20,000 bases of DNA from an uncultured Methanosarcinales archaeon (GTDB lineage Archaea > Nanobdellota > Nanobdellia > Woesearchaeales > BS150m-G63), in NCBI GenBank assembly GCA_964630685.1, contig CAZVVW010000004.1, positions 53,454 to 73,453 on the forward strand, written 5' to 3'. Positions 1,531 through 16,812 of the stretch are shown here, in pieces; the first letter of the stretch is position 1; every line of letters starts with the position of its first letter. Below the pieces are notes generated by a model. It saw nothing but the letters and a program-made list of their open reading frames with translations, searched no databases and was not told where the DNA came from. The translations under genes were made by a program, and so were the position numbers.

Positions 1531-1648
1531 CACAATCAGGAAATAATGGCTGATTATTTCTGAAAGTAAGCAAAATTTTAGATTTTGCTCACAATCAGGA
1601 AATAATGGCTGATTATTTCTGAAAGTAAGCAAAATTTTAGATTTTGCT
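1531..1648. repeat. Exact 59-bp tandem duplication (1531-1589, 1590-1648), with a degenerate partial third copy at about 1504-1530
   Basis: cacaatcaggaaataatggctgattatttctgaaagtaagcaaaattttagattttgct occurs twice back to back. Upstream aagcaagtaaaatccttagatttcacc resembles the unit's 3' half. The second copy contains the topA stop codon. Confidence 0.95.
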
Positions 1649-3829
1649 TATATGTCGACATTTAGGATAGCCTGAGCACCCATAGAATTCTCCGTAAAAA
1701 GATTTTCTTAATACTAGTTCTTTGCCACATTTAGGGCACATTTTTTTCTCTTTTGTTTTTTTATCATCTTTTTTATCTGTTTTATTATTCCTATTTGTTT
1801 TAGAAACGCAATCAGGATTTATGCAAAGTTCTTGTGGCCTTTTTCCCTTTTTTATTACATTGACCATAGGGTAATTACATTCCTTGCATAGGTTTTCTGA
1901 ATTTTTGATTAATCCATTTGGAGGCAATTTAAAGGTGGTTTTACAATCAGGATATTTAGTACATGCAATGAATTTTCCAAATTTACCTCTTTTTATAGTC
2001 AGTTGCCCATTTTTACAAGTTGGACATTTACCTATGTGATTTGCTTTATCTTGAGTTTCTCTTGTAGCATCTATTAATCCTTCACCTATTTCTTTTTCTT
2101 TTTCTTTGAATTGTTTTAATATTTTTTTTAGAATCTCTTTAACTTCATCTAAGACTGTTTCTTTTTTCTTTTTATCTGAACGAATATGTTCCATTTCTTC
2201 TTCAAAATGCCTTGTTAATTTTTCATCTATTATTCCTGGAGAATATTTTTTTAATGTATCCACTGTCGCTAAACCGAGAGAAGTTGCTTCTATGGATTTT
2301 CCTTTAAGATAATTTCTTTGGAACAATTTATCCACTATATCTGCTCTTGTGGATTTTGTGCCTATATTTCTTTTTTCTAATTCTTTGATTATTGAAGATG
2401 GAGTATACCTCTTTGGTGGTTGAGTTTCTTTTGAGTGGATTTTTATTTTTTTTACAGATACACATTCTCCCTGATCCATTTGTGGAAGTTCTTCTTCTTT
2501 TAAGGATAAATAAGGTTGGTAAAAAGTGTGCCACCCAGGTTCTAAGGTAGTTATTCCTTTTGCAACAAAAATTTCTTGATTACAATCCACTTTTGCAGTT
2601 GTTAATTGTCTTTTGGCAATTGGTGCAAAGGTCGATAAAAATCGTTTTACAATCAAATCATATAATTTTTTAGCATGACTATCTTCCAGTTTTTTTGGAA
2701 TTATGCCTGTTGGATAAATAGCTGGATGGGCAGGATCTGATTTTTTACCTTCATTAGGTTTAAGTGTTTTTTTGAGGAGAGCGTCACATAATTCTTTGTA
2801 ATTTTTTTGTTTTGAAAGTTCTTTTATTATTTTGTCATACCCAATTCCTTTTGGTAATTTTTGAGAAGATGTTCTTGGGTAAGATATATAGGAATTTGTG
2901 TATAGATCTTGAGCTATTTGAAGTGTTTTTTTAGGGGGTATTCTTAAGCACCTATATGATTCTATTTGAAGTGTAGTGAGATCAAATGGAAAGGGAGGTA
3001 GTTGATTTTTTTCTTTCTTTTCTATGGATTTTATTGTTGCACTTTGATTTTTTGTTTGTTCGAGCACTTTGTTTGCTTTTTCTTTTTCCCAAAATTTGTC
3101 TTCGATATGCCATGCAATTAAGTTTCCTTGTTTTACATTTCCGTTCAATTCTATTTGCCAGAAAGGTGTTGGAATAAATGCCTTTATTTCCCTATCTCTA
3201 TCTGTTATTATTTTTAGTGATGGACCTTGTACCCTTCCTATGCTTAAAATTTTGAATGCTCCAGTTGCTTTGATTGAAGCAGTTAATGCCCTACTTAGAT
3301 TTATACCATACATCCAATCAAGAAAATGTCTGGTTTCTCCTGCATTTGCTTGCCCCCAATCTATATTGGGAGATTTGTTTTCATAAGCTTTTATTAAATC
3401 AGGTTTAGTTAATGTTGAAAATTTCATTCTGTTAGCATCTTTTTTTTGTAATGCGAATCTTACTATATTTAGGCCAATAACTTCCCCTTCAATATCATAA
3501 TCGCAAGCTATAGTGAATTCTGAAGCCCCTTTTGATAATTTTTTTAGATTAAGAAGATAATCTTTTGAATATTTTTGGGCTTTATTCATGGAAGCAGTAT
3601 CTACCCAATGCATATTGAATACAGGATAAGCCCATCCATTTTTTTCTTTTTCATCTACAGAATAAAGATGTCCTACCGCAGAAGCAACTATGATTTCTTT
3701 ATTATTGTGAGTTATTTTATAATAAGGAACTTTTCTTTTGTAGGTTTCTTTTTGGGGAGTTTTGTCTGCTAATGCAGTTGCAATCTTAAGTGCAGCACTT
3801 GGTTTTTCGCAAATTATTAGTTCATACAT
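1637..3829 (-). CDS. topA: DNA topoisomerase IA with three C-terminal zinc ribbons
   Basis: TOPRIM motifs (ICEKPS, GHL, ACDYDIEGEVIG), SIGRVQGP, catalytic ISYPRT, GTKSTR, and three C4 ribbons (CPTC..C..YPDC, CKEC..C.NPDC, CPKC..C..YPKC). ATG at 3829 (MYELIICEKP) preferred over the track's TTG at 3853. Confidence 0.96.
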   Translation of the reverse strand: MYELIICEKPSAALKIATALADKTPQKETYKRKVPYYKITHNNKEIIVASAVGHLYSVDEKEKNGWAYPVFNMHWVDTASMNKAQKYSKDYLLNLKKLSKGASEFTIACDYDIEGEVIGLNIVRFALQKKDANRMKFSTLTKPDLIKAYENKSPNIDWGQANAGETRHFLDWMYGINLSRALTASIKATGAFKILSIGRVQGPSLKIITDRDREIKAFIPTPFWQIELNGNVKQGNLIAWHIEDKFWEKEKANKVLEQTKNQSATIKSIEKKEKNQLPPFPFDLTTLQIESYRCLRIPPKKTLQIAQDLYTNSYISYPRTSSQKLPKGIGYDKIIKELSKQKNYKELCDALLKKTLKPNEGKKSDPAHPAIYPTGIIPKKLEDSHAKKLYDLIVKRFLSTFAPIAKRQLTTAKVDCNQEIFVAKGITTLEPGWHTFYQPYLSLKEEELPQMDQGECVSVKKIKIHSKETQPPKRYTPSSIIKELEKRNIGTKSTRADIVDKLFQRNYLKGKSIEATSLGLATVDTLKKYSPGIIDEKLTRHFEEEMEHIRSDKKKKETVLDEVKEILKKILKQFKEKEKEIGEGLIDATRETQDKANHIGKCPTCKNGQLTIKRGKFGKFIACTKYPDCKTTFKLPPNGLIKNSENLCKECNYPMVNVIKKGKRPQELCINPDCVSKTNRNNKTDKKDDKKTKEKKMCPKCGKELVLRKSFYGEFYGCSGYPKCRHISKI

Positions 3830-3878
3830 TTTTGAATTGGGTGAAGAAACCAAAAAAAGCGCTCATATAATAATGTTA

Positions 3879-10314: not shown

Positions 10315-10491
10315 TTTTTAATTAAGAATACTAATTAAAGGTAATCTTTAAATATTAGTTAGTTTTAATAAAACTATCCATTAAAAAGAAGAAGACAAAC
10401 GAATTAATTAAAATATTTGTCTTCTATAATTATGGTAATCAACTTAATTTATTAATAAATTATGTATATTGCTATATGGAGGGGAATTAAT

Positions 10492-10770
10492 ATGTTAAAG
10501 ATGAAAAGAATATCTGAAGCTTATGATATGAAAGTTTTTACTGATACTGGCGATTATTTTGGAGATGTGGAAGAGTCAATTTTAACACATAACAAAGTTT
10601 TTGGTTGGAGGGTTAAAGCAACAAGAAACTCTTTTTTGAATAAAGTGCTTGGCTCTGCAAAAGGTGTGATTGTACCACATCAATTAGTTAAGTCTATTGG
10701 AGATATCATTATTATCAGTAAAGCTGCTGTGCCTTCTCAAGCATCTGACGATGAAGTAGAAGCAGAGTAG
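10492..10770 (+). CDS. PRC-barrel domain protein (possible CdpB-like cell-division protein)
   Basis: MKVFTDTGDYFGDVEE...VPHQLVKSIGDIIII fits the PRC-barrel pattern. SD-like GGAGGGG at 10478-10484 supports ATG 10492 over 10462. Acidic C-terminal tail. Confidence 0.85.
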   Translation: MLKMKRISEAYDMKVFTDTGDYFGDVEESILTHNKVFGWRVKATRNSFLNKVLGSAKGVIVPHQLVKSIGDIIIISKAAVPSQASDDEVEAE

Positions 10771-10771
10771 A

Positions 10772-10801
10772 TTTTATTTTTTCTATTTCTTTTTTATTTT
10801 T
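10772..10801 (+). terminator. Oligo-T archaeal terminator candidate
   Basis: Several T-runs (ttttattttttctattttctttttta...) directly after the PRC-barrel stop. Confidence 0.5.
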
Positions 10802-10867
10802 CAGGTTTGATTATTTTGGATTTAATTTTACTTACAATGTAAGTATTAAGAAATTAGCTTATTTAGT

Positions 10868-11806
10868 TTATTCTAATAATTCTACACTATCTATTCTTCC
10901 ATCTCCATCAAGATCAAATCCTTGAACAGCTACGGCAAAGGTTTTTTGGTCAGAGAATCTTTGAGTGATTAGTTTGTGGTGTCTTGTTAATGCAAGTACA
11001 GCTGCTTTTGTGCCAAGATACCTTATTCCTGCTAAAACTAATATCTTGTTTTCTGGGTTATAAGGGTTTGGAATTCTTGCTATGAATCCACAAGATTCAT
11101 CTGTGTATTGTTTTCTTGTTTTTTCTGAAATAATTCCATAAGGTTTTTTGTCTGAGAATTTTATTGGGAGCATATCATTTACTTTTGAAACAATAAGGTT
11201 TGTTATAGGCCCTCCGACAAGAATTAAATTATTTTTCTTTTTTGTAGCAATATCTACATCTAAAACCACGCTAAATTTTTTGGGAATTGAGCTATAGTGC
11301 CCAAGAAATAATGCTAAATCAATTGCATAATGTCCATCTCTCGCTCTTGCTTTTTGTGGGCCATGAGGATCTGGACTACCCACCACTATATTGCAATTGA
11401 GTTTGTTATTTTGTATGAATGGTTTGAGAAATTCTTTTAGTTCTTTATCTTTTTCTTCATGAATTAATTTGTCCATATCTTTCCAATTTTGGCTTAGGGA
11501 GATGACAAAATTCATCTCTTTTGGTTTGTATTTTTTTGCTACTGTCCCCCTTATTTCTTTTTTTTCAACTAGTTCGAGAATTCCCGAATTGAGAAGTTGT
11601 TTTATATGGTAGTATACTTTTTGTTCATGTAGTTTTAGTTTTTTAGCTAATTCTGCAGGATACATGGGTTTTTTCGCTAAAGTTTCTAGTATATTGATTC
11701 TTATTGGGTGGTCTATTAAACGCATTGCTGAAGGATTGTGAAATATGAAAGCAGAATCATATACTAATTGATTTTCTTTTTCTCTTATTAGATAATTTTT
11801 AGGCAT
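10868..11806 (-). CDS. ArsR-like winged-helix transcription regulator with a C-terminal alpha/beta domain
   Basis: HPIRINILETLAKKPMYPAELAKKL...QKVYYHIKQL..SG (wHTH). C-domain has IVVGSPDPHGP, NLILVGGPITN, AG...GTKAA and a terminal DLDGDGRID. Confidence 0.8.
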   Translation of the reverse strand: MPKNYLIREKENQLVYDSAFIFHNPSAMRLIDHPIRINILETLAKKPMYPAELAKKLKLHEQKVYYHIKQLLNSGILELVEKKEIRGTVAKKYKPKEMNFVISLSQNWKDMDKLIHEEKDKELKEFLKPFIQNNKLNCNIVVGSPDPHGPQKARARDGHYAIDLALFLGHYSSIPKKFSVVLDVDIATKKKNNLILVGGPITNLIVSKVNDMLPIKFSDKKPYGIISEKTRKQYTDESCGFIARIPNPYNPENKILVLAGIRYLGTKAAVLALTRHHKLITQRFSDQKTFAVAVQGFDLDGDGRIDSVELLE

Positions 11807-12046
11807 TTTTTTAGGTGAGTTTTTTTTGTTTATAAATTTTACTTTTTATTATAACTTTTTTTATAATATTCTTATAATTTTATATAAAGGTATTTTATTT
11901 TAAGTGGTTGTTTAGTGATGGTTTTTTGTTTAGGGGTTTCTTTGCCCTTCTTTGGTTAGATTGGTGGTTTTTTTGGGTTTGTTGGGGTTGGGGGGTCTGT
12001 TAGTGTTTGTTTTTATTTTTTTATTATAATTTAATTCTTAATTAAT

Positions 12047-12055
12047 TATTTAAAT
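12047..12055 (+). promoter_or_regulatory. Candidate TATA box of the amino-sugar operon (probably leaderless transcript)
   Basis: TATTTAAAT about 22-30 nt upstream of ATG 12077, with no SD in between. Confidence 0.45.
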
Positions 12056-12076
12056 GGCTGAATTTTAAATAAGATT

Positions 12077-12775
12077 ATGGCAACTAAAATTGTGATAATG
12101 GCTGCAGGTAAGGGCACAAGAATGATGCCTTTAACGCAGTATGTTCCGAAGACTTTAATTAACGTAGGCGGAAAACCTTTCTTGTATTATGTTATGAAGA
12201 ATGTGTTGAAAGCAGGGTATACAGAGATAGGCATTGTTGTAGGTTATAAAAAAGATAAGATTCAAGAATTTCTTAAAGATTTTGGGTTTAAAGCAAAACT
12301 CATGGAGCAAAAGAAAAGACTTGGTACTGGGCACGCACTTAAACAAATTAAAGGGTTTATAGACGGAGAAGATTTTGTAGTGATTGGTGGAGATAATCTA
12401 TGGTCCACTAATGATTTGAAAGCTATGCGCGGAAAGAGTAAATTTTGTTATATTGCTGGCATGGAACACCCAAGTCCTGAAAAATACGGGGTGCTTCTTG
12501 AAGAAGAAGGTATGTTGAAAAAGATTGTTGAAAAACCAAAGAGTTTTGTTGGTAACTTGATTAATGTAGGGTTGTATAAATTTACTAATGATATTTTTGG
12601 GGCACTTGACAATATTAAGAAATCTGAAAGGGGAGAATATGAATTGACAGACGCAATTTCTTTATTGGCTTCTCAAGGAAAAGTAAAAGTGATGGAGCTT
12701 AAAGATTATTGGTTGGATTTAGGTTGTTTGGATGACATACCCTTGATTGAACAATTCTTGACTAAAAAGATATAG
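12077..12775 (+). CDS. Sugar-phosphate nucleotidyltransferase (GlmU N-domain/RmlA-like), lacking the acetyltransferase domain
   Basis: MAAGKGTRMMPLT...PKTL, LGTGHA, GDN, YGV, IVEKP, SERGEYELTDAI, WLDLG. Ends at 232 aa with no hexapeptide repeats. Confidence 0.9.
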   Translation: MATKIVIMAAGKGTRMMPLTQYVPKTLINVGGKPFLYYVMKNVLKAGYTEIGIVVGYKKDKIQEFLKDFGFKAKLMEQKKRLGTGHALKQIKGFIDGEDFVVIGGDNLWSTNDLKAMRGKSKFCYIAGMEHPSPEKYGVLLEEEGMLKKIVEKPKSFVGNLINVGLYKFTNDIFGALDNIKKSERGEYELTDAISLLASQGKVKVMELKDYWLDLGCLDDIPLIEQFLTKKI

Positions 12776-12779
12776 GAAA

Positions 12780-12860
12780 ATGAGTGGAATTTTTGGTTAC
12801 AAAGGCAAAAAGACTAGGTCTTTAAGCCGTTTAAGAGATTTTGTTGAGGAGATGATTTAA
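12780..12860 (+). CDS. 26-aa micro-ORF resembling the GlmS N-terminus (MSGIFGYKGKKTRSLSRLRDFVEEMI); functional peptide or gene remnant
   Basis: Manual translation. Starts 4 nt after the upstream TAG and its TAA ends 1 nt before the glmS ATG. 7 of the first 9 residues are identical to GlmS (MCGIFGYNG). Confidence 0.55.
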   Translation: MSGIFGYKGKKTRSLSRLRDFVEEMI

Positions 12861-12861
12861 T

Positions 12862-14658
12862 ATGTGTGGGATTTTTGGATATAACGGGACACAGAACTCT
12901 TTTTCTATAGTATTTAATGGACTTAAAGATCTTGAATACAGGGGTTATGACTCTTGGGGTGTTGCTTCTTTGATTGATGGAAATATTAATGTAATTAAAA
13001 AAACCGGAAGGATAGGTGAAGATTTTGGTGGAAAGGAGATTAAAAGTTGTGTTTCTATTGGCCATACTCGTTGGAGTACTCATGGTAAACCTTCTGATAA
13101 AAATGCACATCCACATCTTAGTTGTGATGGAAAGATAGCTGTTGTTCATAATGGGATTATTGAGAATCATGATAAAATTAGGGAAAGATTGAAAGGACAC
13201 AAATTCAAATCTGAGACAGATACAGAAGTGATTGCTCACTTAATAGAAGAATATATGAAGAAGTATGATTATAAAGAAGCGATTGTTAAAGCGCTTGGAG
13301 AATTAGAAGGAAGTTTTGCTTTAATGATATTGAATTCTGAAAGGGAAGATATTATTGCTGTAAGGAGGGGATCTCCATTAGTTATAGGGATTAAAGGGGA
13401 AGAGTTTTTTTTATCTTCTGATCTTTTGGCTTTGTTGAGACACACAAAAGAGATTGTTTTTGTGGAAGACGATGAAATGGTGATTTTTAATTCTGGTTTT
13501 AAAATGATTAATTTTGTTAGTGGCGAGATAGTGAATAGAAATCCAGAAGTCATGGATATTGATTTTAGTGAATCTGATAAAGGAGATTTTAGTCACTTTA
13601 TGCTTAAAGAGATATATGAACAGCCAAAAGCGATTGAAAAAACTATTTCTGGAGATGGTGGCGAAGGGGTTGTATTTCAGATTCCTGATGAAGTGTTTTC
13701 TAAATTGAATAGGGTTGTGATTGTTGCTTGTGGAACTAGTTGGCATGCAGGATTGGTTGGAGAATATTGGATAGAAAGGTTTGCTGGAATACCAGTTGAA
13801 GTAGAATATGCGTCTGAATTTAGGTACAGAAAACCAATTATTGATGAAAATGTTTTAATTATTGCTATAAGTCAAAGTGGAGAGACTGCTGATACACTCG
13901 CTGCTGTAAAAGAGGCTAAAAGTGGGGGTGCGTTTATTTTTTCAATTTGTAATGTTTTTGGAAGCACACTGACTCGACTTTCTGATTTAGTTGTTTATAC
14001 TCGGGCTGGTGCAGAAATAGGGGTAGCTTCTACTAAGGCTTTTACAACTCAATTGAGTGTACTTTATTTGCTTTCTTTGTTTTTTGGGCATAAAAAAGGG
14101 GATTTAGATGATGAGGAAGTGGAAAGGAGAATTGGGTTTTTGAAAGGGGTGCCTAAACAGATAGAAGATATTCTGAATAACGAAAAAAAGGTTAGAGAGA
14201 TTGCTGAAAATTATTATCTTGATAAAAATGCACTTTATTTAGGTAGGGGTTTGAATTTTCCAATTGCCTTGGAAGGTGCGCTGAAATTGAAAGAGGTTTC
14301 TTATATTCATGCTGAAGGATATCCTGCTGCAGAAATGAAGCATGGGCCTATTGCTTTGATTGATAAAGATATGCCTGTTGTGTTTATTGCTGCAAAAGAT
14401 AAAACTTATGAGAAAGTTATGGCAAATATTGAAGAAGTCAAATCAAGAAAAGGGAAGGTGATTGCTTTGGCTAGTGAAGGTGATTCTGTTGTTGCTGGAA
14501 AAGTAGATCATGTGTTATATATCCCTGAAGCAGATCATTTTATACTTCCTTTTTTGACTGTGATTCCTTTACAATTACTCGCTTATTATATTGCTGATTT
14601 AAGGGGGTGTGAAATCGATAAACCCCGTAATCTTGCGAAGAGTGTTACTGTTGAATAA
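12862..14658 (+). CDS. glmS: Glutamine-fructose-6-phosphate aminotransferase (isomerizing)
   Basis: MCGI, LEYRGYDS, GHTRW.THG, HNGIIEN, SETDTEV, ACGTSWHA, SQSGETADT, EGALKLKE, C-terminal PRNLAKSVTVE. SD-like GAGGAG at 12846-12851. Confidence 0.99.
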   Translation: MCGIFGYNGTQNSFSIVFNGLKDLEYRGYDSWGVASLIDGNINVIKKTGRIGEDFGGKEIKSCVSIGHTRWSTHGKPSDKNAHPHLSCDGKIAVVHNGIIENHDKIRERLKGHKFKSETDTEVIAHLIEEYMKKYDYKEAIVKALGELEGSFALMILNSEREDIIAVRRGSPLVIGIKGEEFFLSSDLLALLRHTKEIVFVEDDEMVIFNSGFKMINFVSGEIVNRNPEVMDIDFSESDKGDFSHFMLKEIYEQPKAIEKTISGDGGEGVVFQIPDEVFSKLNRVVIVACGTSWHAGLVGEYWIERFAGIPVEVEYASEFRYRKPIIDENVLIIAISQSGETADTLAAVKEAKSGGAFIFSICNVFGSTLTRLSDLVVYTRAGAEIGVASTKAFTTQLSVLYLLSLFFGHKKGDLDDEEVERRIGFLKGVPKQIEDILNNEKKVREIAENYYLDKNALYLGRGLNFPIALEGALKLKEVSYIHAEGYPAAEMKHGPIALIDKDMPVVFIAAKDKTYEKVMANIEEVKSRKGKVIALASEGDSVVAGKVDHVLYIPEADHFILPFLTVIPLQLLAYYIADLRGCEIDKPRNLAKSVTVE

Positions 14659-14659
14659 A

Positions 14660-15133
14660 ATGGAATTTAGAAAAGCTAACGAATTAGATAAAGAAATGAT
14701 TGGAGAAGTTTTGAGACAGTGTTATAATATTGATTCTGTTGAAGAGGGTGTTGGGGTTTTTATGGAAGAGGTTAGTAAAGGATATAATTTTATTGTTGCT
14801 GAAGAAGCAGGAAAGATAGTTGGTTTGACTAGCTGGACTGTACATGGTTTAGTGAAACATGGATTAGCTGAATTAGATAGGATTGCTGTGTTGTTTGAAT
14901 TTAGACAAAAAGGAGCTGGAAGAGGATTATTTAATTCTTTGATTGAAAATGCTAAAGAATTTTATTCTGTTGAAGGGGGGATGCTTCGGAAAGTGTATTT
15001 GATGACTCATGCAGATAATTTTAATGCTCAAGAATTTTATAATAAATTAGGGTTGAAAAGTGAGGCTAAATTAAAGGACCATTTTTATGATGGCAAAGAT
15101 GAATTAGTTATGTCAATATTTGTGGAGGATTGA
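14660..15133 (+). CDS. GNAT family N-acetyltransferase
   Basis: ELDRIAV...RQKGAGRGL (acetyl-CoA loop) and N..AQEFY.KLG. ATG at 14660, 1 nt after the glmS TAA, preferred over the track's 14609. Confidence 0.9.
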   Translation: MEFRKANELDKEMIGEVLRQCYNIDSVEEGVGVFMEEVSKGYNFIVAEEAGKIVGLTSWTVHGLVKHGLAELDRIAVLFEFRQKGAGRGLFNSLIENAKEFYSVEGGMLRKVYLMTHADNFNAQEFYNKLGLKSEAKLKDHFYDGKDELVMSIFVED

Positions 15134-15138
15134 TTATT

Positions 15139-16812
15139 ATGAAAATTAAGGCGGTTATTTTTGATTTGGATGATACATTGTTTGATTGTAGTGGAATTCT
15201 GGCAGAATCTGCTAGAAAGCGGGCTGCTAAAGCAATGGTTAAAGCTGGTTTGAAATGTAAGTGGGAAAAAGCATATAAGAAGATTAACGAGTTTAAGCGA
15301 AAAAAAGGACCTAAGACAGATGCTTTTCAAAAAGTTGTGGATAAATTCGGACCTAAAGATTATTCTATTGTAAAAGAAGCTATTAAATCATATAATAGTG
15401 AAGAAGGGATTGAAGGGATTGAGTTGTTTCCAGGGGTGAAAGAGACTCTTGCTGAATTGAGAGAAGATTATAAATTGATTTTGGTGACTAGTGGGACAAG
15501 GGTGCGTCAACAGAAAAAAATAGATATGCTTGGGCTGAACCATGATTTTGATTTAATAATTATTGATGAATTGGAAGAACAATTATCAAAAGAAGATAGG
15601 TTTTTAGCTGTTTTAAAGAATTTTAAATTAGTTCCTGAAGAGGTGCTTGTGGTTGGAGATAGAATATTCTCTGAAATTAAAATAGGAAATATTTTGGGAA
15701 TGACGACTGTGCAGATGTTGCATGGTGTTTATAGTGGATTAGTTCCTAAAAGAGGGGTAGAGGCTCCTGATTTTAGGATTACTAAGATTGCTGAATTAAT
15801 TAGAATTTTGGAAGAATTAGAAAATCATAAAGAGTTGAAGGTGGTTGTGATTGGTGGGGGAACTGGATTGCCTTCAATGCTGAAAGGGTTGAAGAAATAT
15901 ACTCGTGAATTGACTGCTGTTGTGGGGGTTACAGATTCTGGTAGAAGTTCTGGAATGCTTAGAAAAGATTTTGATATGGCTCCGCCTGGAGATATAAGAA
16001 ATTGTTTGGTTGCTTTGTCTGATGCTGAAAAACTGATGGGAGATTTATTTCAACACAGATTTATGAATGGTAGTTTAGAAGGGCATTCTTTTGGTAATTT
16101 GTTGATTACTGCGCTTACTCAGACCACTGGCAGTTATGAGAGAGCAATACATGAGGTTGGAGGAATTTTAAAGATAAAAGGTAGGGTGTTGCCTAGCTCT
16201 CACGAAAATGTACATATTTGTGCTGAATTTGAAGATGGAAATGTGATTAAAGAAGAAGATAATATTATTGATAGGCATAATCCTGATGTGCATTTGCGTC
16301 CTAGAATTAAAAAAGTGTTTCTGAGCAAAAAAGTCAAAGTTTGCGGTAGTGCTGTGAATGCTATTATGGATGCAGATATTGTGGTGATTGGTCCTGGAAG
16401 TTTGTTTACTAGTGTGATTACTAATTTACTTGTTAAAGGGATTCGTGATGCTGTTGTTAAGAGTAAAGCTAAGAAAGTTTATGTGTGTAATATAATGGCT
16501 CAACCTTCACAAACTTATGGATTTACATCATCTGAACATGTGGGGGAGATTGAGAAGTATTTAGGGAAAGGGGTTTTAGATTATATTATTTTGAATAATG
16601 AATTGCCCCCCAAGAAATTGTTGAGATTATATGAAAAAGATCATTCTCCTATGGTTGTGGTGGATAGGGTTGGATTGAAGAAATTCAAGGCTAAAAAGAT
16701 AGAGGCAAATATTGTTGAAGATGTTAAGGAGATAAAGGTTTTGTGGAACAAAAAGAATTTACTCAGGCATGATTCTGATAAGATTGCTAAGATAATTGTT
16801 GGGTTGGAATAG
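15139..16812 (+). CDS. yvcK: Fusion of a HAD-superfamily hydrolase (N-terminal about 230 aa) and a YvcK/GlmR (CofD/UPF0052 family) domain
   Basis: HAD motifs FDLDDT, LVTSG, K, VGDRIFSE..G...G. From about 15832: VVIGGGTG, DSGRSSG.LR, PPGDIRNCL, GHSFGNL, IGPGSLFTS, RHD. Single uninterrupted frame. SD GGAGG at 15124-15128 supports ATG 15139. Confidence 0.9.
   Translation: MKIKAVIFDLDDTLFDCSGILAESARKRAAKAMVKAGLKCKWEKAYKKINEFKRKKGPKTDAFQKVVDKFGPKDYSIVKEAIKSYNSEEGIEGIELFPGVKETLAELREDYKLILVTSGTRVRQQKKIDMLGLNHDFDLIIIDELEEQLSKEDRFLAVLKNFKLVPEEVLVVGDRIFSEIKIGNILGMTTVQMLHGVYSGLVPKRGVEAPDFRITKIAELIRILEELENHKELKVVVIGGGTGLPSMLKGLKKYTRELTAVVGVTDSGRSSGMLRKDFDMAPPGDIRNCLVALSDAEKLMGDLFQHRFMNGSLEGHSFGNLLITALTQTTGSYERAIHEVGGILKIKGRVLPSSHENVHICAEFEDGNVIKEEDNIIDRHNPDVHLRPRIKKVFLSKKVKVCGSAVNAIMDADIVVIGPGSLFTSVITNLLVKGIRDAVVKSKAKKVYVCNIMAQPSQTYGFTSSEHVGEIEKYLGKGVLDYIILNNELPPKKLLRLYEKDHSPMVVVDRVGLKKFKAKKIEANIVEDVKEIKVLWNKKNLLRHDSDKIAKIIVGLE

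Follow-up and report, generated by a model that had tools for sequence, protein, structure and literature searches.

The question raised by this locus is why a short open reading frame (ORF) that copies the beginning of a gene should stand directly in front of that gene. In a stretch of 20,000 nucleotides from an archaeal genome (the window, by which we mean that whole stretch), the gap before glmS is occupied by a 26-codon ORF, referred to here as the mini-ORF, the peptide of which starts like GlmS with the cysteine replaced by serine. The initial annotation, which gave the coordinates and the peptide of the mini-ORF exactly, regarded it as the product of old divergence under protein-level selection and offered three explanations: a catalytically dead mimic or leader peptide of GlmS, a translational-coupling bridge, or the scar of an Ntn-amidotransferase paralogue. 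Our own interpretation, which we hold with moderate confidence, is that the mini-ORF is the in-frame read-out of an 82-nt repeat unit that acts in cis as a leader cistron, with a Shine–Dalgarno (SD) motif and stop–start coupling, and that its peptide is not selected.

The source of the window, genome G000 (0.94 Mb in 35 contigs, 31% GC, completeness estimate 96.6%), was compared with G001 and G002, which belong to the same genus (G002 is unpublished), and with G003, which belongs to another genus. The glmS loci of 60 relatives were collected and their upstream regions were read. L001 and L003 are the glmS loci of G000 and G001, respectively, and L040 is a metagenome contig close to G001.

The 82-nt repeat unit before glmS

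The gene preceding glmS encodes a sugar-phosphate nucleotidyltransferase (NTPT). The two genes are 86 nt apart and the mini-ORF takes up 81 of these: a 4-nt spacer separates the NTPT stop codon (TAG) from the mini-ORF ATG, and a 1-nt spacer separates the stop of the mini-ORF from the glmS start (TAA-T-ATG). All three cistrons are on the plus strand and each is in its own reading frame, in agreement with the earlier description of the mini-ORF as out of frame with both neighbours. A search of G000 against itself found full glmS as a single copy. The mini-ORF and the nucleotide that follows it make up a unit of two segments, A and B (Table 1). As found in G001, segment A (26 nt) is identical to the glmS start; the G000 segment A differs from that of the G001 unit at one nucleotide, and its codon 2 is AGT (Ser, 12783–12785) where glmS has TGT. 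Segment B ends in GAGGAGATGATTTAA(T/C), right before the next ATG.

The repetitive nature of the unit is apparent in G001, the GlmS of which is 89% identical. Here, three 82-nt units stand head to tail directly before glmS, and each of them is an intact 26-codon ORF, MCGIFGYKGKKTTSLSPLRDFVEEMI, in which the cysteine is kept; the middle copy carries the change P17H. Tandem Repeats Finder reports the array (L003, 1251–1526) as a repeat of period 82 with 3.4 copies and 98% matches. The period is constant, the head-to-tail copies include the start codon, and G000 has the same arrangement in the form of one unit plus the glmS start. At every unit junction in both genomes the stop–start spacing is 1 nt (TAA and one base, then ATG). 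The NTPT stop of G001 is 10 nt before the first mini-ORF ATG, compared with the 4 nt observed in G000.

The number of units differs among close relatives. L040 contains a single unit, again with the cysteine, between flanks that differ from those of G001 at 1 of 2526 and 2 of 665 bases (99.7–99.96% identical). In G002, the GlmS of which is 74% identical, there are no units, and 1 nt lies between the NTPT stop and the glmS start (TAA-G-ATG); the absence of the unit from a congener rests on this unpublished genome. A screen of 55 loci, in 34 of which the glmS start was recognised by its pattern (it was not found or not covered in the remaining 21), revealed the duplication only in L001, L003 and L040. 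BLAST of the unit against 401 genomes of the order returned the full unit only from G000 and G001, and the other 32 genomes with a match contributed glmS starts or short AT-rich stretches only. Retention of the ORF in relatives, which the initial annotation had raised, was borne out in part: the ORF is present in G001 and L040 and is absent from G002 and from the 31 others at which a glmS start was recognised. It is intact in all five copies seen (one in G000, three in G001 and one in L040).

The mini-ORF also contains the sequence GAGGAG, which had been pointed out initially as the SD of glmS. Its last G is 10 nt before the glmS ATG and its GGAG begins at −14. The 3′ end of the 16S rRNA of G000 reads GATCACCTCCT and carries the anti-SD sequence CCUCC. 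Upstream of 664 long ORFs of this genome the starts of GGAG and GAGG peak at −14 to −11, and SD-like 4-mers are found at −16 to −4 for 21.4% of the ORFs, compared with 6.5% in a control window. The GGAG at −14 therefore falls within the preferred SD window of G000, and the unit provides the only SD motif before glmS in this genome. The mini-ORF has the anatomy of a leader cistron, with its stop 1 nt from the main start and the SD of the main gene inside it. Of the three explanations offered initially, the translational-coupling bridge is the one that this anatomy fits (spacings of 4 and 1 nt and GGAG at −14); the coupling itself is a prediction from these spacings.

The leader-cistron interpretation can be put as a series of steps. 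By insertion or duplication at the NTPT–glmS junction, the unit would have arisen in the ancestor shared by G000 and G001, or else have been exchanged between the two. Because the same 26 nt stand at either end of the unit, unequal recombination between these A repeats, or slippage, could then change the number of copies in both directions. An ancestral junction at which NTPT and glmS were joined directly, stop to start, would in this manner have become a chain leading from NTPT through one or more mini-ORFs to glmS. Each mini-ORF would end 1 nt before the next start and carry the SD for it, and ribosomes would be handed on to glmS. The glmS gene of G002 seems to rely on direct stop–start coupling to NTPT. 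The peptide would be an irrelevant by-product of this arrangement.

In line with what the initial annotation had suggested, the mini-ORF is not an assembly echo. The G000 copy is six of 27 nt away from its glmS start, and contigs from four runs and two studies agree with the window without a single difference. Those of runs X1 and X5, one from each study and both flagged as possible sources of the window DNA, cover 12500–13100; a 491-nt contig of X6 covers 12500–12867 and a 162-nt contig of X7 covers 12824–12985, and these two between them span both unit junctions. The Ser codon is the assembled state in every run with contigs covering it (X1, X5 and X6), and the unit is also present in separate assemblies of the second species. 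All of the genomes concerned are metagenome-assembled, tandem repeats are prone to error in such assemblies, and the count of three units in G001 as opposed to one may be unreliable, but the probability that the copy before glmS is an artefact is in our opinion negligible.

Two further observations concern the region before glmS. The sequence TTTAAG, which lies some 30 nt ahead of the glmS ATG in segment B, matches a TATA box too weakly to be claimed as one. At loci L005–L031, from other genomes of the order, the 40 nt upstream of glmS in many cases contain TATA-like boxes about 25–35 nt before the ATG and no SD, which suggests that the glmS mRNAs may be leaderless there; a few of these loci have GGAGG/GGTGA-type motifs instead.

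Substitutions in the unit and its peptide

The units of G000 and G001 differ at four of their 82 nt, namely nt 4 (Cys2Ser), nt 38 (Thr13Arg), nt 50 (Pro17Arg) and nt 57, and only the last of these changes is synonymous. The P17H change within the G001 array hits nt 50 again, which brings the count across copies to four nonsynonymous changes and one synonymous. Purifying selection on the peptide was sought among the relatives, and the comparison gave three nonsynonymous changes to one synonymous, with residue 2 being either Cys or Ser. The cysteine is present in all four copies of G001 and L040 and the serine only in G000, so the serine is not a designed feature. The Cys-to-Ser change in G000 probably reflects drift, the peptide of that copy being of no consequence.

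The initial annotation had drawn its argument for selection from the differences between the mini-ORF and the adjacent glmS, most of which it placed at synonymous third positions. That count is correct. The first 27 nt of the mini-ORF match the glmS start of G000 at 21 positions, and the six differences comprise two nonsynonymous (Cys2Ser and Lys8Asn) and four synonymous changes. When the same 27 nt are compared with the glmS start of G001, there are two differences. The synonymous differences between the mini-ORF and glmS fit change in the glmS gene of G000 because segment A of the unit is only two of 27 nt away from the glmS start of G001. Those at nt 18 and 24 (GGT>GGA and AAA>AAC) are polarised by G002 to change in the functional glmS of G000. 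Those at nt 9 and 21 (GGA>GGG and TAC>TAT) are ambiguous in polarity, and at nt 21 G002 shares the T of G000. The silent changes would be better explained by selection on GlmS itself, which allows mainly silent change in glmS, and the argument from them to old protein-level selection on the mini-ORF is incorrect.

The remainder of the peptide gives a similar picture. Its 17-residue tail is segment B read in frame, and by our own estimate an open stretch of 17 codons occurs by chance roughly one time in four at 31% GC. No Pfam family was found for the mini-ORF peptide at E values up to 1. A functional peptide of 26 residues that acts on GlmS or on its synthesis, either as a mimic of the β1 strand or as a leader peptide, with the Cys-to-Ser change making it catalytically inert, would be in keeping with the intact ORF in five of five copies and with the first nine residues, seven of which are shared with GlmS in G000 and all nine in G001. 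It is difficult to reconcile with the retained cysteines, with the excess of nonsynonymous changes, with the lack of the ORF in G002 and the 31 other loci, with a tail that may be open by chance and with the analogous mini-ORFs before fttA described below, the tails of which are unrelated between the two species. The mini-ORF peptide appears to carry no sign of protein-level selection, and we regard the dead mimic or leader peptide as very improbable.

A second gene-start copy, the origin of segment B and the alternatives

Gene-start copies of this kind were also sought in the rest of G000. Among 1493 candidate starts belonging to ORFs of at least 120 aa, only two are preceded by an ATG-led copy of their own first 27 nt when up to six mismatches are allowed: that of glmS (six mismatches, offset 82) and that of a 631-aa gene on contig C1 (two mismatches, offset 103). 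In ten permutations the mean for one to six mismatches was 0.1 per genome, all at six mismatches; the permutations also gave 0.6 zero-mismatch matches, which are presumably same-ORF pairings. The gene-start copies at these two genes exceed chance. The second gene is fttA (aCPSF1), with the domains KH_TffA, Beta-Casp and RMMBL, which were scored on the 97% identical orthologue from G001.

The stop of the fttA mini-ORF overlaps the fttA ATG, and GGTGA is present in its 3′ end. G001 has a homologous but much altered mini-ORF of 23 codons before fttA, with a tail unrelated to that of G000. The mini-ORF is absent in G003, and G002 (79% complete) gave no match to fttA. An alignment of the mini-ORF regions of G000 and G001 (103 and 75 nt, respectively) contains 59 identical positions in 108 columns, and the fttA coding sequences of the two genomes are 90.6% identical. 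The presence of the same architecture before fttA in G000 and G001, and its absence in G003, would provide a second case for the leader-cistron interpretation. We also note a perfect 6-bp hairpin at the end of the gene similarity, or no more than a few bases from it, in all three mini-ORFs (the glmS unit and the fttA mini-ORFs of G000 and G001), located at 12809–12823, at about 393–406 of L081 and, on the minus strand of L077, just past the start of the small ORF. The stems differ from one another. Read by eye, the shared hairpin perhaps hints at the way in which the copies formed; chance would be another explanation in DNA so rich in AT.

Similarity of the glmS unit to its gene ends after nt 26, and segment B was compared with a range of possible sources. 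Against the glmS 5′ regions of 38 relatives, from codon 9 onward, it scored 19, the null being 19.4 ± 2.4, and 173 of 300 shuffles reached this score. Against the glmS genes of G000, G001 and G002 themselves, between 164 and 981 of 1000 shuffles reached the observed score. The reverse complement of the neighbourhood gave no match beyond shuffles, and the best result with the 300-nt upstream flanks was a score reached by 43 of 500 shuffles. A MAFFT match between the 3′ end of the G002 NTPT gene and the unit was taken as a forced alignment, with nonsignificant shuffle tests. The unit was found nowhere beyond the glmS locus in G000, G001 and G002, and the whole unit could not be derived from contiguous ancestral sequence at the locus. 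BLAST did not detect segment B in the 399 other genomes of the order, an exact 24-mer from it was found in G001 only among species-representative genomes, and two patterns from it had no matches in viral contigs.

The third of the initial explanations, the scar of an amidotransferase paralogue, finds no footing in these comparisons. Class II amidotransferase homology does not extend beyond the first codons, as judged by Pfam at E values up to 1 and by comparison of segment B with the 38 glmS genes. No full GlmS-like paralogue, for which the initial annotation had suggested looking in relatives, occupies the site in G001, in G002 or at the other loci viewed; the arrangement in G001 and G002 is NTPT, units (three or none) and glmS. 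G000 has one other class II amidotransferase, the product of an asparagine-synthase-like gene that lies on a different contig and starts MCGINGI.

A scar of a different kind would be left by gene-start replacement or by mobile DNA, if the glmS leader and start of another lineage, or an integrating element whose attachment site is in the glmS start, had come in at the first codons and stranded a copy of the start upstream. No source of segment B exists in the three genomes of this genus, as would be the case for imported DNA, segment A of G000 resembles the glmS of G001 more than its own, and contigs like G001 and like G000 co-occur in one metagenome assembly (L040 and L044). However, G000 and G001 are collinear over the window, with no inserted block beside the unit, and there are no other copies and no recombinase, integrase or endonuclease domain nearby, the latter check covering the Pfam-annotated ORFs at 10462–16812. 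The lack of segment B from viral contigs, from the rest of the order and, as an exact 24-mer, from every other species-representative genome also speaks against an import. The flanks diverge normally, so an imported patch would need to be exactly 82 nt. We consider this origin improbable.

Several points weigh against reading the unit as a leader cistron. The units of G000 and G001 are identical at 78 of 82 nt (95%) without indels, and a leader cistron needs about 25 constrained bases, so that the conservation exceeds what the interpretation predicts. Over the collinear 20 kb, 486 of 18367 windows of 82 nt (2.65%) have four or fewer differences, the mean being 12.2. None of the searches located a source of segment B, and the first unit cannot be a plain duplication of contiguous DNA because G002 has no segment B. 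The difference between three units in G001 and one in L040 may reflect polymorphism or assembly collapse. The decayed fttA copy has the look that would be expected of a neutral scar, in contrast to the glmS unit. Finally, translation of the mini-ORF and a contribution of the coupling to GlmS output are predictions from the sequence.

The conservation of the unit stands out at several levels of comparison. Between G000 and G001 the NTPT gene is 86.1% identical in nucleotides and the glmS coding sequence 85.3%, fourfold-degenerate sites are 61–62% identical and two intergenic regions close by reach 77.4 and 88.7%. Third positions of the genes are 66–70% identical, compared with one change at the 26 third positions of the unit. 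The patch of high identity matches the unit in extent, with normal divergence in the flanks on either side. Such conservation points to nucleotide-level constraint or to recent exchange between G000 and G001, alternatives which two species and four differences do not discriminate.

Nucleotide-level constraint would be expected if the unit were a cis-regulator of glmS (a protein or metabolite site, or a decoy initiation region) with its copy number tuning expression. Conservation that is not at the codon level, a high-identity patch with exactly the extent of the unit and a variable copy number are all compatible with such a regulator, as is the 6-bp hairpin in segment B, which is kept between G000 and G001 with the change at nt 38 located in its loop. 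On the other hand, the fold of the unit is not better than that of shuffles (z of 0.09 for G000 and −1.45 for G001), and Rfam gave no matches at E values up to 1 on either strand of the L001 and L003 loci. A second small stem in the G001 unit (CCCU/AGGG) is disrupted in G000, four differences between two species are too few for covariation, and 2.65% of the windows are equally conserved. A regulator of this type is in our judgement fairly improbable.

The alternative to which we give more weight, while still regarding it as unlikely, is that a duplication or an insertion at the start of the gene has left the unit as a neutral scar, which has no effect on glmS beyond containing its SD and which will be lost or decay. 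G002 has an intact NTPT–glmS operon without any unit, the copy number differs between the nearly identical sequences of G001 and L040, the fttA analogue decays freely and three of the four changes in the glmS unit are nonsynonymous. A neutral scar would not be expected to show an identity above that of the flanking genes, without indels and among the top 2.65% of windows. Moreover, the unit holds the only SD before glmS, so at least its 3′ part is not dispensable.

A more ambitious form of the leader-cistron interpretation would regard the unit as a selected, amplifiable 'start-codon cassette', consisting of a decoy initiation region, an SD and stop–start coupling, the copy number of which would set GlmS output in these Woesearchaeota with their small genomes. 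The cassette would have stayed almost the same (95%) in two species with genes only 85% identical, and the fttA case may indicate that this lineage forms such modules from gene starts time and again. We view this extension as rather unlikely.

Gene neighbourhood and comparison with known systems

The coordinates of the features discussed above are listed in Table 1.

Table 1. Positions of the genes, repeat segments and motifs at the glmS locus of the window, and of the mini-ORF before fttA on contig C1.
Feature	Position	Strand	Basis or remark
NTPT, sugar-phosphate nucleotidyltransferase, 232 aa, first cistron	12077..12775	+	Pfam NTP_transferase, E 2.9e-39; ORF list
82-nt repeat unit (A + B), single copy in window	12780..12861	+	Comparison with G001, L040 and G002; Tandem Repeats Finder
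Mini-ORF, 26 codons, stop included, peptide MSGIFGYKGKKTRSLSRLRDFVEEMI and stop	12780..12860	+	Frame-0 read-out of A + B
Segment A, repeats glmS nt 1–26 (codons 1–9 reach nt 27)	12780..12805	+	Sequence comparison
Segment B, 56-nt leader	12806..12861	+	No similarity beyond shuffles to glmS coding sequence, flanks or their reverse complement
6-bp hairpin AAAGAC-TAG-GTCTTT in segment B	12809–12823	+	Present in centroid fold
GAGGAG, SD-like, for glmS, inside mini-ORF	12846..12851	+	16S 3′ end; genome SD statistics
glmS, 598 aa, Cys1 intact	12862..14658	+	Pfam SIS, GATase_6, GATase_7
fttA mini-ORF, 36 codons, MSKITNEILREQVLESFAFNSQNKKEISKLEGDIYE and stop (begins MSKITNEILREQ...)	C1:31265–31375 (L081 366–476), before gene at C1:31368		Copy of first ~30 nt of fttA

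On the 3′ side of glmS there is an ORF for a GNAT acetyltransferase (14609–15133), the listed GTG start of which gives a 50-nt overlap with the end of glmS, and further 3′ a 560-aa fusion of a HAD phosphatase with a CofD (YvcK-like) protein (15130–16812). Together with glmS these genes have the appearance of an operon for amino-sugar nucleotides, in which the fusion is unusual. The intergenic region 5′ of NTPT (11807–12076) is 77% identical to that of G001 overall and contains two near-perfectly identical blocks that are rich in TATA-like sequence, for example TTATAAATTTTA... and ...TTATTATAAT.TAATTCTTAATTAATTATTTAAA; the two blocks probably correspond to the divergent promoters of an HTH/S-layer-like gene and of the NTPT–glmS operon.

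Tandem repeats occur elsewhere in the window and in the genome. A 59-nt repeat at 1497–1648 (2.6 copies, 91% matches) extends into the 3′ end of a minus-strand ORF of 738 aa (1637..3853), which we take to be a putative type IA topoisomerase. The alignment of G000 with G001 breaks at this repeat, with about 190 nt in G000 standing opposite about 20 nt in G001. Short intergenic tandem repeats, the periods of which range over 35–145 nt, are numerous across G000, examples being those at C1:132329 (period 53), C3:3897 (39), C3:62576 (35), C5:6591 (51), C5:65434 (51), C8:25215 (120) and C3:69151 (145).

With the comparisons reported here, a Cys-to-Ser 'dead mimic' of the GlmS N-terminus is replaced by a structure that can be checked, namely a repeat unit made from the gene's own start. 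The glmS and fttA loci provide two natural examples, in one DPANN lineage, of gene-start duplications that create upstream mini-ORFs. If the adjacent gene is the only one with which it is compared, a mini-ORF of this kind would wrongly be counted as a leader peptide or a conserved small protein. The excerpts of the literature available to us contain nothing on archaeal glmS leader ORFs or on gene-start duplication cassettes.

The post-transcriptional control of glmS in bacteria is well known and includes the glmS ribozyme/riboswitch and the small RNAs GlmY and GlmZ. The present unit has in common with these its position in the 5′ region of glmS; it differs in belonging to an archaeon, in having no Rfam match at the threshold given above and in its nonsignificant fold. 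Variable-number tandem repeats in promoter or leader regions are known to tune expression in contingency loci. The unit is likewise arranged head to tail and is present in zero, one or three copies in close relatives, but it is long (82 nt) and one of the differences in copy number may be an assembly effect. In tandem duplications of gene starts, as here, an upstream ORF repeats the opening codons of the gene behind it, ends at or beside the start of that gene and is specific to a lineage. What is particular to the glmS unit is that the copied part is only 26 nt, that the remainder is a leader with no located source, that the unit itself has been amplified in tandem in the sister species and that it is better conserved than its host gene.

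Short upstream ORFs that are coupled to the next gene through overlapping or adjacent stop and start codons are well known, and the arrangement is reportedly the basis of the engineered 'bicistronic design' of Mutalik et al. (2013). In both the design and the unit, a short first cistron carries, close to its 3′ end, the SD for the second gene and has its stop no more than 1 nt away from the start of that gene. The unit described here differs in being natural and archaeal, in being derived from the gene's own start and in occurring in arrays of up to three, with coupling predicted from the arrangement. If its conservation reflects function, the unit would be a natural archaeal counterpart of the engineered bicistronic translation couplers, and one in which the number of repeats could tune the output of an essential amino-sugar enzyme.

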